Assembly (NCBI GenBank): GCA_964488095.1
Contig: CAZATP010000007.1
Location: 29,959-93,958 of the forward strand
Length of the DNA stretch: 64,000 nucleotides
Source of the DNA: an uncultured Chryseobacterium sp.
Lineage (GTDB): Bacteria > Bacteroidota > Bacteroidia > UBA10329
Direction of reading: 5' to 3'
Shown: positions 1 through 6,000 of the stretch, in pieces
How positions within the stretch are numbered: position 1 is the stretch's first letter
How the letters are laid out: each line of letters starts with the position of its first letter
Made by a program: the position numbers

Positions 1-3000
1 GGTCGGGCACCCACACCTCGTGATAGCGGTCCATGTAGCCCTTGTGCAGCCGATGCAGGTAGCCCTCCAGAAAAGGGGCCTTTATCATCACCTGATGGGT
101 GATGTAGGCACAGGGCACCTTATTGGAATACAGCCCAAAACGGTTGTCCGATATCACTCCGTTCAGACGGTAGTGGTCTATCATACCCTGCAACTCCTTG
201 TGCTCCTCGGCAATGCGTCTGATGATGCGGGGCGCGGCCACTCCCATTTTCCACACCATGCCCTGCCCCTCGGGATAGCTGATCTCATAGCCTTTGAAGG
301 AGATGAATTCCAGCGCGGGAAACTCGTCCAGCAGCAGGGCCAACGGCCGTCCATCGGCAGCGATCACGGGCACGTGGCCCAGCGCAAGAATGTGGCGGAT
401 GAGCGGAATGCAGCGGGTGGCATGGCCCAATCCCCAGTCCAGCGGGGCTATGAGAATGCGTTTTGCCATGCAGGGCGCAAGATGGGGAATAAAGCCATCG
501 GGTAGGAGGGGAAGAGGGGAGATGCCCGTGCGTGAGGCGGGTCAGGCCGGTGTTGTAAAAGGGAGCGAGACACTTCAACAGGCTCACGAAAAGCAGTTCA
601 CACATAACCCGAACGAAGAACGGACCCTCGTGCAGGCAAAGACAAAGTCACCAGTTCAGAAACTCCTTGACTTTTGGATGTGTCAAAAGTTTGTACAACA
701 ACAGCAGACCACTGATAACCTGCAATGTGGTGGCCACAATCAACATGGTTAGGGCACCTGGCCAGTGCTGGATTTTGAAGATGGCTCCAACAAGGCCTAT
801 CAGAATTCCAGCGGCAAGGATTAGAAGTATGTGTTTTGCTTTCATACAAATTGTTTGGTCTAAGCGGTTAGATGCAATAGATGTGTCGCAGTGGAGCTTT
901 GTCAAACTTTGGAAGTTTGACAAAGCTGATTCGAATGCCGAAGCATGAGCGGGTGGCATGGCCCAATCCCCAGTCCAGCGGGGCTATGAGGATGCGTTTG
1001 CTCATACGAGGTGCAAGATGGGGATAAAGCCACTATACCATGTGCAGGGTCAAACGTCCGTTCCTTACGTCTGTTCCGACTCCGACTGAACGAAATGGAT
1101 AGAGAACTATCCAAAATGGAAAGAAGTCTTTCCAAAATGGAAAGAACACTATCCGAAATGGAAAGAAGTCTTTCCAAAACGGAAAGAACACTATCCGAAA
1201 TGGAAAGAAGTCTTTCCAAAATGGAAAGAACACTATCCGAAATGGAAAGAAGTCTTTCCAAAACGGAAAGAACACTATCCGAAATGGAAAGAAGTCTTTC
1301 CAAAATGGAAAGAACACTATCCGAAATGGAAAGAAGTCTTTTCAAAATGGAAAGAACACTATCCGAAATGGATAGTTTGTCTGCCTGAAGGCGCTACCTC
1401 GGCAGCCTCATCTGAACAACCCCTGCACCCGCTGCCGCGGTTTCAGTGCGTTGATGTTGAACGTGAACCGTATGCGCTCCCAGTAGCTTTTGGTGAGAAA
1501 CTCGGCATTCTGCTGCAGGTCGCTGCTCAGGGCGATGGGGAAATGCACTGCCAGCACATCGGGGATCACGTTGAGGCTGGCCCCGAACTCCACAATGAAC
1601 AGTTCTGATTCGGGGAAGGCCGTGCCCGTGTTGCTGCTGAGGCCGATGCTGAAGAACAGCTCCACGGGCACCTTGCGGTAGAGCGTGGAGCTGAGGTTGA
1701 GCGCCATGAGCCATTCGTTGCTCTGCCCGATGTTCATGTAGGTCTTGAAGCCGCCATCGGCCTCTATCATCTGCTGGGAGAAGAAGCCGCTGGTCTCAAA
1801 GCGGCCCATGTAGGCGCCCTCGTAGAGATAGTCCTGATAGCCGCGATGCGATGACATACGGAGGTTGTAAATGGAATTGCTGCCACTGCCGATGATGCCG
1901 CCCACAAAAAGCCGTGCCCTGAATCCTCTGCTGCGCCTGTAGGCAAAGCCGTACACGGCCTCCAGGCTGAGCTTGGCATCGCGCTCCAACTGCTGGTAGT
2001 CGAGGGTGACGCGGGTGGAATGGGGCTTGAACTCCTGACGGAACTCGTAGGTGAGCTGGGGGATGACGATCTGGTCGCGGGCATTGTTCTCGCGGATGAA
2101 ATGACTGCCCCGCAACCGCAGGTGATGCGTCATGTTGAGCCGCCTGTTCCTCGGCCCGAACGTGAGGCTCACCTCGGGGCGGATGATGTTGCCCGGCATG
2201 TAGGGCGAGGTGGGCGACAGTGGCAGGTCGAATCGCTGACCCTGAATCCGGAACCGTACCTGTGGGTCTTTCAGCGTCTGGATGGTGTAGTGGATATCGG
2301 CCATACCCGTGAGCCCCTTGCTGCCGAAGGCATACATGGGCATGACCATGAAACTGAATCTGTTCTTGGGCAGGATGTCGTTGTAGAACGCCATGCCGAG
2401 CATGAAGCCGTCATACTTGTTGCCACCGAGCACGGGCGCGAAGGCCACGCGATACCGCATGTCCGATTCGAGGAACACCAGCGGCTGTATGCGATGCGGA
2501 TACTTGCTCTTGCCGAAACCGCGCACAAGGAAGGTGTTGTTCTTCAGGTCGGGGTCGGGCATGGTGCGGTCGGCATCGATCACCACACGGTCGCAACTGT
2601 CGCAGGGCACCGTGACCCATTGTGCGCCCCTGTGGCCTTCCGACCACGTGACCGACTGCACGGAATCCTCCCGCAGCACCGTGATGGGGAACGGGGCCTC
2701 GATGCCCCCACGGTTGCGGATGCGCACCTGCACCGAATCGCCTTGCAGCCGGGTGTACTTGGCCGCATAGTCCATCTTTTTGCGCGAACCCACCACATCG
2801 TCAAAGAACCAGCTGAGCGAATCGCCCGTCACCTCCATCGCTACTTTGCGGAAGTCCTCGGGGTAGGGGTGGCGGTAGCGCCACTCGCGGAAATAGCGGT
2901 GCATCAGCGTGTCCATCTTCTCCTCGCCCAGATACTGCATCAGATAATTGAGCACCACTGCCGATTTCATGTAGGCGATGGTGCCGTAGTTGGTGGAGGA

Positions 3001-6000
3001 GAATTGGGCCGAGGGCGTCTCCATCGGCTGGTCTGTGTTCGAGCGCATCGATAGGCGGTAGGCCAGCATGCCGAGGTCGCGGTGCTCCAGATGGTAGGCG
3101 CCCAAGAGCCGCAGCCCGAAGCGGTAGAGGCCGCCACTGAACAGCGATTCGCGCAGTTTGAGCCCCGGATATTTCCAGTGCATGTAGCGCGATTCGATGA
3201 AGCTGTTCATGCCCTCGTCCATCCACGGGTGCTGCCGTTCGTTGCTGGCCAGTAGGCCATAGAACCAATTGTGGCCCACCTCGTGCATGATGGTCTCTTC
3301 CAGCGAATAGGCATTGCCGCTCTCCCCGATGATGGTGATGTTGGGATATTCCATGCCGCCCCCTTCGCTCAGCACCCCGTCCACGGCCGTCACGTGGTCA
3401 TACGGATACTCGCCCACCTTTTCTGAATAGAATCGCGTGGCATCGTTCAGGTATTCGATGGAGCGTTGCCAGAGCGGGGCCTCGTTGTTGGTGAACATGG
3501 CCCAGGTGGTCACCTTGCGGCCGCTGGGCAGGGCCACCTCGCCCTTGAGCACATGGTAGCGCTTGTCGGCAAACCATGCGAAATCGTGCACCCGCTCCTG
3601 ATGGAAATGCAGGGTCTTGGTCTGCGGGTCGGAAGGAGGGAAGCGCAGGTCGCGGGTGTCGAAGCTGTCGGTGGCGGCCGTGATGCGGGCCTTCTCATCG
3701 AGCCACTGCAGTTCCGCGTCACCGTTCACGAGGTCGCCCGTGGCGCCCACCACGTAGTTCTTCGGCAGGGTAATGTGTACGTCATACGTGCCGAACTCGG
3801 AGTAGAACTCCCCCTGACCGAGGTAAGGCATCGCGTGCCAGCCCTTGGGATCATAGACTGCGGGCTTGGGGAACCATTGCGTCACCTGATACGCCTGTCC
3901 CAGATGCCCCAGCCGCGAGAAGATGCCTTTCGGAATCTGCACACGGAAGGGCGTGGAGATGCGGATGGTCTCGCCCGGCAGCAGCGGGCTGTTGAGCACC
4001 AGTTGCACGATGTCGGTGTACTGCGCATGGGGCGTGGAGGCGATAGGCTGCCCGTCCGCTTTCCAGTCGAGGCTGTCGATGAAGCCGCGGTCCTGCAGTT
4101 TGGAGTAGAAGAGGGATACATCCCCATCCTCGCGCATCTGGCGGTCGAGGGCCGTTCCTCTCTGGTAGGCGTTGGGCCACAGATGGAACCAGATGTGGCG
4201 CAGCGTGTCGGGGCTGTGATTGGTATAGGTGATGGTCTGGAAGGCATGCAGCTGGTGGGCCGCGTCATCCAGTCGCACATGGATCTCGTGGTCGGCCTGC
4301 TGCTGCCAGTAGGTCTGGGCCGGGACCAGCAGGGGCAGGCATAGGAGCAGGGAAAGGAGGAGCCTCACCGGGGGAGTATTTCACGGGCCAAGGTAGAAGA
4401 ATGCGGTTGGAGCTGGTGAAACCCACTCAAACCAAACATGATTCTGCTCGAACCAAGCTTGAAACGGTTCAAACCAAACATGAATCAGTCCGAACCAAAT
4501 ATGATTCAGTCTGAACCAAGCTTGAAACGGTTCAAATCAAATATGATTCAGCCCGAATCAAGCATGAAACGGTTCAAACCAAATATGATTTAATCCGAAT
4601 CAAGCTTGAAACAGTTCAAACCAAATATGATTCAACCCGAATCAAGCTTGAAACAGTCCGAACCAAATATGATTCAGTCCGAATCAAGCTTGAAACAGTC
4701 CGAACCAAATATGATTCAGCCCGAATCAAGCTTGAAACAGTCCGAACCAAATATGATTCAGTCCGAATCAAGCTTGAAACAGTTCAAACCAAACATGATT
4801 CGGTTCAAATCAAGCTTGGATTGCTGCGCAACACACAGATGATAACCTCGTCATCCCAGCGCACATTCAGCCTGCTGTTGGAAGTAATCCTGACCGTGGA
4901 CAAGCAGGCTGATAAGTAAAGGGAATGTGGTTGGATGGCAGGGAGGCAACGCACGGGCGGCACAGCCGTCAGCCAGGGGTCTCGGCCTATGGGCGTTGAG
5001 GTACATTTGCAACTCGGTAAATATTTATGCGCTCAGTGGGGTCACAGTTCTGGAAGCGGTCGGGCGGTATGTTGCTGCCGGCCTTGGTGCTGCTATTTCC
5101 GCAATTGATAAACGCGCAATCCTGGATAGAAGACTTTGAAACAGGCAATTTAGCAGGTTGGACTCAACAAACGGGAATCGCAAATGCAGTGGCCAATCCA
5201 GCATTGAATGGATCATTCTCGGCATCGATTCAGGGAACGCCAATTGCGATGTGGTCTAGTAATAATTTGATTGAGTCTTCGGGTAGATACTCGTACTCAA
5301 CCCGCGTTGACCTTGTGGACATTGATACAGATGGATATTTCTGTTTTCAATTTCAGGATAGTGATAATGGATATTTACTGGCGACCATGCCCGCAAATTC
5401 AGACAACCCGGGGACTAGACTGTTTCGAAGAGTGAGCGGGGTTTACACATTGTTGGCAGAGGACGTTTCAGATCCGGTACTTGCCGGGGAGTGGAATTCT
5501 TTTGAAATCATTAGAGACACATGCTCAGGCTTAATTCAGGTATCTCAAAACGGGACGTTTCTTTTTAGTGTGATAGACAACACGTTCTTGGCTGCTGGTA
5601 CCGTGGCAATTGGAGGTCAGAGTAGATATGCCTACTTCGATGATTTGAGCTTTACACCCAGCATTCCGATGTCTGTTAGTCTGAGTGTGTTGTCAGAATC
5701 TACTTGTGCAACTTCTAACGATGCCAGTGCAGAAGTAATTGTTGCTGGCGGATTACCACCGTACAGTATACTATGGTCCAATGGCATGACAACGAGCAAT
5801 GTTGGAAACCTTCCAATCGGCAGTGTTTCTGTGGATGTTACTGATTCGTATGGGTGCATTATTTCTAGAAGCGATGTTGTTATTGGGCCTGACTCCATTG
5901 TCGTAGTTCTTACGAGCAACAGCTCTCCTTGTGATGGAGGAAATAGTGGGGCCGTTTCAACAGTTGTAAGCGGAGGAATAGCGCCTTACGATTATCAGTG

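Follow-up and report, generated by a model that had tools for sequence, protein, structure and literature searches.

An M1 family aminopeptidase with a predicted Omp85-like beta-barrel, conserved in Bacteroidota

The window analysed here, a 64,000-nucleotide stretch of the genome of an uncultured Chryseobacterium sp. (GenBank assembly GCA_964488095.1, contig CAZATP010000007.1, positions 29,959 to 93,958 of the forward strand), carries on its minus strand, at 1408-4368, an open reading frame (ORF) of 986 amino acids (aa) whose start codon is GTG. This start and the sequence adjacent to it upstream are kept in a 96%-identical relative from another assembly, and because more than 100 full-length homologues of the protein were found at 42-96% identity, the ORF is considered a real gene. 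It joins an M1 peptidase domain with intact catalytic residues to a C-terminal barrel whose modelled fold best matches Omp85 proteins, and this fusion is conserved across Bacteroidota. The features of the gene are listed below, with their basis in brackets; several were read from an AlphaFold2 (AF2) model, for which local confidence is given as the predicted local distance difference test (pLDDT).

1408-4368, minus strand: whole gene, M1 peptidase plus beta-barrel, 986 aa, stop codon at 1408-1410 (ORF list, homologues)
4318-4368, minus strand: signal peptide, residues 1-17 (MRLLLSLLLCLPLLVPA), predicted cleavage before Gln18 (read from the sequence; cleavage site deduced)
3493-4299, minus strand: M1 domain I, the N-terminal beta domain, residues 24-292 (AF2 secondary structure, Foldseek)
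2779-3492, minus strand: M1 catalytic domain II, residues 293-530 (PF01433; invariant residues in 37 homologues)
within catalytic domain II: GGMEY, residues 336-341
3271-3285, minus strand: HEVGH, residues 362-366, within catalytic domain II
3214-3216, minus strand: E385, within catalytic domain II
2575-2778, minus strand: small sandwich of beta-strands only, the counterpart of M1 domain III, residues 531-598 (six strands in the AF2 model)
2455-2574, minus strand: linker, residues 599-638, with the conserved motif P-x4-KNN (AF2 model, alignment)
1459-2454, minus strand: predicted 16-stranded transmembrane beta-barrel, residues 639-970 (strands b1, 639-650, to b16, 967-970)
1714-1890, minus strand: b11-b12 loop, residues 827-885 (59 residues), at the position of Omp85 loop L6 (strand map, conservation)
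1636-1665, minus strand: strand b13, residues 902-911, at the position of the Omp85 FxDxG motif (column counts, hhalign)
1411-1458, minus strand: C-terminal tail after b16, residues 971-986, predicted short helix (AF2, pLDDT 60-67)

The initial annotation of this DNA had described the product as a secreted M1 aminopeptidase, and both parts of this description held. The N-terminus (MRLLLSLLLCLPLLVPA, followed by QTYWQQ) resembles a signal peptide of signal peptidase I, and the AF2 model places a low-confidence helix there. Gln is frequent at position +1 of exported Bacteroidota proteins, and it is the majority residue at the post-cleavage position in the family alignment, which comprises 37 homologues with 42-75% identity to the query. 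Anchoring as a lipoprotein was considered and rejected, as the sole Cys of the signal peptide (LLLC-L) lies outside any lipobox.

The peptidase assignment was confirmed by Pfam, where PF01433 matched residues 320-523 (E = 2.2e-16; 60.5 bits, where the cut-off is 27.7). With the window protein as query, NCBIfam and the PDB sequences returned M1 enzymes alone, and these over the catalytic core alone. The two catalytic motifs that had been proposed, HEVGHNWFYG and WMDEGMNSF, begin at residues 362 and 382, respectively. The zinc site formed by H362, E363, H366 and E385 (HExxH-x18-E) is invariant in the 37 homologues, and so is the GxMEN-type motif G-G-M-E340-Y-P, in which Tyr replaces Asn throughout the family. 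The Glu of this exopeptidase motif binds the free amino group of the substrate. Y466 and K468 are also invariant, and the segment AYMKSA was aligned to SYNKGA, the catalytic-Tyr segment of ERAP2. Since the zinc site, the GxMEN-type motif and Y466/K468 are all invariant, the peptidase looks active and is predicted to be catalytically competent. In a Foldseek comparison, the full-length model matched ERAP1, ERAP2, APN, IRAP and PSA with E-values of about 1e-22 to 1e-23 over about 620-660 columns, and the roughly 630 aligned columns of the model would correspond to M1 domains I-III.

M1 domains I-III stop at about residue 598, leaving a non-M1 portion of about 390 residues, and stand-alone M1 relatives align with the window protein until residue 568-614. 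It had been proposed that a beta-rich extension of roughly 400 residues takes the place of the helical domain IV of canonical enzymes. The AF2 model agrees with this proposal: the C-terminal third is predicted to be nearly all beta-strand, no helices occur between residues 527 and 948, and an all-helical, ERAP1-like C-domain is absent. Likewise, neither ERAP1_C nor Leuk-A4-hydro_C gave a Pfam match in the window protein. A known soluble accessory domain was also looked for, and no Pfam family matched residues 600-986, either in the whole protein or in 18 members scanned singly; NCBIfam returned nothing for the C-terminal region. The compositional argument that had been offered for the extension, namely its richness in Gly, Ser, Tyr and Phe, stood only in part and is weak, because the enrichment is modest (Phe makes up 7.5% of the tail against 4.6% of the rest) and Tyr is in fact lower in the tail. 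In the linker that leads to the extension, P604, N610 and N611 are invariant or nearly invariant, and the model shows short strands with a pLDDT of 65-81.

The full-length AF2 model, which was built on the 37-sequence alignment, has a mean pLDDT of 86 and a predicted template modelling score (pTM) of 0.82, and it contains 16 long C-terminal strands. Residues 600-986 were also modelled on their own (pLDDT 70.6, pTM 0.70), and this barrel-only model was used for a Foldseek search against all PDB chains. As a result, the top 50 matches were all members of Omp85 (E from 3.7e-6 to 1.8e-4), with modest TM-scores of 0.38-0.47. The order of the strands is also that of Omp85, with 11 strands, the 59-residue loop and then five strands that include a very short b16. 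The b11-b12 loop is the most conserved segment of the barrel (column identity 0.59, against 0.49 for b1-b11); four of its residues (Y847, R856, Q866 and F874) are invariant, and it includes the segments HRGYQDY, GR, QQ and DGGFK. The 16 predicted strands and the uniform Foldseek result bear out the likeness to a beta-barrel that had been noticed earlier, and the suggestion of a peptidase fused to an outer-membrane-integrated domain is supported by the predicted Omp85-type barrel. It is very likely that the C-terminal domain is an outer-membrane barrel, and likely that this barrel is Omp85-like.

The L6-like loop (residues 827-885) has a pLDDT of 78-91 in the full-length model, while residues 841-869 fall below 50 in the barrel-only model. 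This gap in predicted confidence could be due to alignment depth (37 versus 18 sequences) or to contact with the M1 module through the lumen.

A number of observations weigh against an Omp85 assignment. No match to PF01103 (Omp85) or PF03865 (ShlB) was obtained with the whole protein at E <= 1 or with 18 barrel sequences at E <= 10, and a hidden Markov model (HMM) search with a profile of the C-terminal region against PDB sequences returned nothing, that is, no Omp85 chain. When the 18-sequence barrel profile was compared by hhalign with a BamA/TamA template profile, a thin one whose 11 sequences are all proteobacterial and were taken from records of E. coli and of plasmids, the result was negative (P = 0.23), as was the comparison with the single E. 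coli BamA. A 254-sequence query (effective number of sequences, Neff, 5.3) gave a score of 30.6 (P = 0.0038, probability 8.7%), which is weak; reversed profiles scored 18.7 and 19.0, and one of 30 block shuffles equalled the real score. The hallmarks of Omp85 are the (L/M/V)RG(W/Y/F) motif of L6 and the FxDxG motif of b13 (PMC11358297). In the present family, RG[YF] is found in about 21 of the 37 sequences, including the window protein, and is not invariant. As for the motif of b13, which is the lid-lock partner of L6, [FYW]xDxG occurs in 19 of the 37, and Ser replaces Asp in the window protein. For POTRA, the defining domain of Omp85 proteins, the window protein gave no Pfam match, and the AF2 model shows only beta-strand in residues 531-638, without a beta-alpha-alpha-beta-beta unit. 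Moreover, the barrel-only model is less confident than the full-length one, and its strands (hydrophobic face +1.8, polar face -0.9) resemble the soluble M1 strands (+1.5 and -1.1). Amphipathicity was not used as evidence, since the barrel strands could not be separated from soluble beta-strands.

The alignment obtained with the 254-sequence query is nevertheless in register across nearly the whole barrel, with b12 on b12 and IRF on FQF, and it puts the family motif l-F-a-D-x-G ([FY]xDxG) on F-W-D-M-G of BamA. The clade of the window protein has FxSxG (F-F-S-I-G in the window protein itself), and G909 of this motif is invariant in the family. The motif resemblance to Omp85, as read from the alignments, is real but partial, and the sequence link is weak and suggestive. 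Membership of the Omp85 superfamily is thus supported by the predicted structure and unestablished by sequence. As a caution on PLSDB, several of its bamA-bearing "plasmid" entries are 2-5 Mb in size and evidently chromosomes (N. gonorrhoeae, 2.17 Mb; A. baumannii, 3.66 Mb).

The fusion is widespread. The exact window protein has no entry in the contig index. A word-index protein search scored at least 8000 candidates at E <= 0.001; nearly all of the best 120 are about 1000 aa long, with M1 as their sole Pfam annotation. An exhaustive search with a barrel-only profile gave 1827 clusters at 50% identity, 1081 of them with E <= 1e-30. In the best 150 clusters the barrel lies at the C-terminus of a protein of about 1000 aa or in an N-terminally truncated fragment, with a single exception, P0160. 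The possibility that the short matches represent stand-alone barrels was rejected, as they are N-terminally truncated gene fragments. P0160 (480 aa, barrel at residues 101-476) is the sole short match that starts with a plausible signal peptide; after this peptide come 80 or so residues whose resemblance is limited to the final part of the M1 catalytic domain. P0160 may be a natural variant without the peptidase core.

One genome per GTDB species was then scanned with the full-length alignment as query. Relatives occur in at least 595 species-level genomes; the 80 best loci are full length. These 80 loci, when examined for taxonomic restriction of the extension, proved to be nearly all from Bacteroidota (Flavobacteriales, Vicingaceae, Crocinitomicaceae, Salibacteraceae, Chitinophagales, Sphingobacteriales and Bacteroidales), together with three metagenome-assembled genomes (MAGs) labelled Chlorobiota. 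Three further MAGs, which bear the names Bifidobacterium sp., Henriciella pelagia and Thiohalospira sp. (loci L035, L072 and L081), also have full-length copies, at 38-39% identity; most probably an error of binning or labelling, and not horizontal transfer, accounts for them. The nearest M1 relatives without the barrel, such as a 620-aa protein of Riemerella and an 811-aa protein of Pseudoalteromonas, share 28-31% identity with the window protein and match residues 15 to 614 or so only. As neither of these two proteins has a Pfam-detectable domain IV (ERAP1_C or Leuk-A4-hydro_C), it seems that a compact M1 lineage of three domains gained the barrel, rather than exchanging domain IV for it.

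The orientation of the protein can be approached through the connections between the barrel strands. In the AF2 model, the long connections, numbered from b1, are all odd-numbered (loops L3, 14 residues; L6, 59; L7, 13; L8, 19), and the even-numbered ones have 2-8 residues. In outer-membrane barrels the connections outside the cell are usually long loops and those in the periplasm short turns, and by this rule both the first residues of b1 and the M1 module are predicted to be periplasmic. The same side is favoured because the N-terminal domains of characterised Omp85 proteins, including the patatin domain of PlpD, are periplasmic. The M1 module is therefore probably located in the periplasm. 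As to the protein as a whole, the balance of probability inclines modestly towards an outer-membrane-anchored, periplasm-facing M1 aminopeptidase, composed of domains I-III and a POTRA-less, 16-stranded barrel of the Omp85 (BamA/TamA/FhaC) type. Such a protein would be exported by the Sec system and processed by signal peptidase I. Its barrel is predicted to insert into the outer membrane, and the M1 module would be held on the periplasmic side by the 40-residue linker to strand b1. Oligopeptides that have passed through the outer membrane, perhaps via the enzyme's own barrel, may then be trimmed at their N-termini. Membrane insertion, periplasmic orientation and substrates are the parts of this scheme that we infer.

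The genes around the fusion were compared across related loci. In 40 of 74 informative loci, the next gene downstream has the same orientation and encodes an LpxH-like UDP-2,3-diacylglucosamine diphosphatase; in 39 of 68, an upstream gene encodes a TlpA/ResA-like thioredoxin lipoprotein, a periplasmic thiol-disulfide oxidoreductase. Farther upstream, gatB is found in 24 loci, and lpxK together with a PNP-family gene is found upstream in 13. The order gatB, TlpA/ResA-like gene, M1-barrel gene, LpxH-like gene is thus seen in about half of the informative loci (L001, L003-L082). None of the gatB, TlpA/ResA-like, lpxK and LpxH-like neighbours is present at the window locus, where this arrangement is lost. 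Here the gene lies between two 42-bp tandem arrays and adjoins genes for a type IX secretion system (T9SS) substrate with SprB repeats and a CHU_C domain, an MscS-like channel and a TonB-like protein. When the window and the flanks of 82 related loci were searched with a BamA HMM, no Omp85 gene came up in either. Overall, the context weakly suggests a housekeeping envelope role rather than a place in a nutrient-uptake operon.

The two arrays, at 1093-1372 and 4481-4818, bracket the peptidase gene and are the only ones of their kind in the 64 kb. They have 6.7 copies (96% match) and 8.0 copies (90% match), respectively, with different consensus sequences, and each 42-bp unit consists of two 21-bp half-units. 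The downstream array is in frame with ORFs of 14-aa repeats on both strands. The 96%-identical relative (L095) lacks the upstream array and has only 2.7 copies of the downstream one, which indicates that the copy number varies between strains. The T9SS substrate (5027-8074, plus strand, 1015 aa) is divergent from the peptidase gene and contains five SprB repeats, a PKD domain and a CHU_C sorting domain; its presence confirms a gliding or T9SS-bearing Bacteroidota genome. The peptidase gene and the tandem array are closely followed downstream by a 103-aa ORF (648-959, minus strand). Two segments of it are hydrophobic, and its weak GldL_N-like match (KIQHWPGA) has an E-value of 5.7e-5, slightly under the Pfam cut-off.

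Other explanations of the protein have to be weighed against a periplasm-facing enzyme. The barrel might be a type V-like translocator that exports the M1 module through its pore and anchors it there, so that extracellular peptides would be trimmed at the cell surface; surface anchoring was one of the options raised in the initial annotation. N-terminal enzyme passengers on C-terminal barrels do exist, such as the P. aeruginosa aminopeptidase autotransporter AaaA (PMC3426542); PlpD was at first proposed to secrete its own passenger (PMC4104836), and a linker of 40 residues with a pLDDT of 65-81 could span the membrane. However, the barrel has 16 strands instead of the 12 of classical autotransporters, there is no helix in the linker, and the lumen would be expected to be filled by the conserved L6-like loop, as in Omp85. 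A three-domain zinc enzyme of about 580 residues is not known to cross a 16-stranded barrel in any other case. Furthermore, the patatin domain of PlpD, long thought to be secreted, was experimentally shown to be periplasmic (PMC11116518). Surface display is accordingly regarded as unlikely. A soluble beta-rich accessory domain, either a sandwich or a closed soluble barrel, would make the Omp85 matches an artefact of prediction. The lack of any sequence match to a transmembrane-barrel family, an amphipathicity contrast that equals that of the soluble control strands and the pLDDT of only 70.6 in the barrel-only model speak for it; the 16 predicted strands and the 50 Omp85 matches at the top of the Foldseek list speak for a membrane barrel, and a soluble domain is considered very improbable.

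Two further explanations are compatible with the periplasmic orientation or build on it. In the one, the protein would serve envelope biogenesis or quality control, its Omp85-type barrel binding beta-strands or gating laterally while the peptidase breaks down outer-membrane proteins that have stalled or been mis-targeted, or else processes proteins of the envelope; it would then resemble BepA at the BAM complex. The short b16 of the Omp85-like barrel and the homologues' neighbouring genes for lipid A synthesis (LpxH-like, LpxK) and for a TlpA-like protein agree with such a role, E. coli bamA likewise lies between the zinc protease gene rseP and skp-lpxD, and a periplasmic role of this kind was proposed by Heinz and Lithgow for enzyme-Omp85 fusions (PMC4104836). 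Against it, synteny with housekeeping genes may be incidental and is absent in the window, and the protein has no POTRA domain to receive substrates. In addition, it is established for the family that an intact GxME-type motif marks M1 enzymes as exopeptidases, which act on free N-termini, rather than as endoproteases. This role appears improbable for the window protein. In the other, the family would be an unrecognised, phylum-wide branch of Omp85 that has lost POTRA and the insertase role, and the barrel would pass oligopeptides straight to an M1 active site docked at its mouth on the periplasmic side. With its very short outer loops and its conserved L6-like plug, the barrel would admit the oligopeptides, and it would replace the substrate cavity of domain IV. 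A pTM of 0.82 and an L6-like loop that is modelled confidently only in the full-length protein are compatible with rigid docking of the M1 module on the barrel, and neither demonstrates it. Import coupled to trimming is hence put forward as a rather improbable elaboration.

If the reading of a periplasm-facing, outer-membrane-anchored aminopeptidase is correct, several consequences follow. The family would be a POTRA-less, enzyme-bearing addition to the few Omp85-type barrels that serve as scaffolds and not as insertases, of which PlpD is the sole experimentally studied member. In a phylum whose ecology relies on the degradation of proteins and peptides, the outer membrane would also carry an aminopeptidase. 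The sole database label of the family is "M1 family metallopeptidase", and hundreds of Bacteroidota genomes therefore lack annotation for about 40% of the protein and for its probable place in the membrane. In the same way, Pfam-based censuses of Omp85 miss divergent barrels that can be recovered by structure prediction.

Compared with canonical four-domain M1 enzymes (APN/PepN, ERAP1/2, IRAP), the window protein is alike in domains I-III, in the zinc site, in the GxME motif and in the catalytic Tyr. It differs in having GGMEY for GAMEN and in being without domain IV, the helical domain that caps the active site in those enzymes. Classical autotransporter peptidases (type Va, e.g. AaaA) likewise carry an aminopeptidase N-terminal to an outer-membrane barrel in one polypeptide, but they have a 12-stranded barrel, a pore helix and a surface passenger and belong to another peptidase family, features that the model of the window protein does not show. 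Unlike Omp85 and TpsB proteins (BamA, TamA, Sam50, FhaC, CdiB), the window protein has an enzyme as its N-terminal domain, and its barrel is without POTRA and escapes both PF01103 and an HMMER comparison with PDB sequences. The hallmark RGY and Asp are not invariant in its family, and the outer loops L1, L2, L4 and L5 have only 2-4 residues. A close parallel in architecture is PlpD, a patatin-like member of Omp85 formerly assigned to "type Vd secretion", which likewise has an N-terminal hydrolase on a C-terminal, 16-stranded barrel of the Omp85 type. PlpD differs in being a lipase, in keeping one POTRA, in a barrel that PF01103 recognises and in its mainly proteobacterial distribution; type Vd proteins combine a patatin passenger with POTRA, and the window protein has neither.

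Absence of POTRA is shared with the "noNterm", "Metallo" and "WD40-like" subfamilies of Omp85 (Heinz and Lithgow 2014, PMC4104836). The domain of the "Metallo" subfamily actually belongs to the Metallophos family PF00149 (PMC4104836). For the "WD40-like" subfamily, Table S3 of the same paper lists Phyre2 "best aminopeptidase" matches to the M1 structures 1z5h, 4kxd, 3qnf and 4fgm, and an M1-like module on an Omp85 barrel had therefore already been catalogued; the peptidase appears nowhere in the main text of PMC4104836. By Tables S2 and S3 of that paper, "WD40-like" proteins combine TolB-like PD40 propellers (PF07676) with a barrel detectable by PF01103, and they are set apart from the window protein, which has neither. 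Those with the M1-like domain presumably include proteins of Rhodothermus, Salinibacter, Caldithrix and Chloroherpeton. In the literature library that was searched, no paper describes an M1-Omp85 fusion in its main text. Enzyme-Omp85 fusions are thus already known, and the family of the window protein differs from them in having no propeller, in a barrel that is invisible to PF01103 and in being found, among the 80 best loci, nearly only in Bacteroidota.

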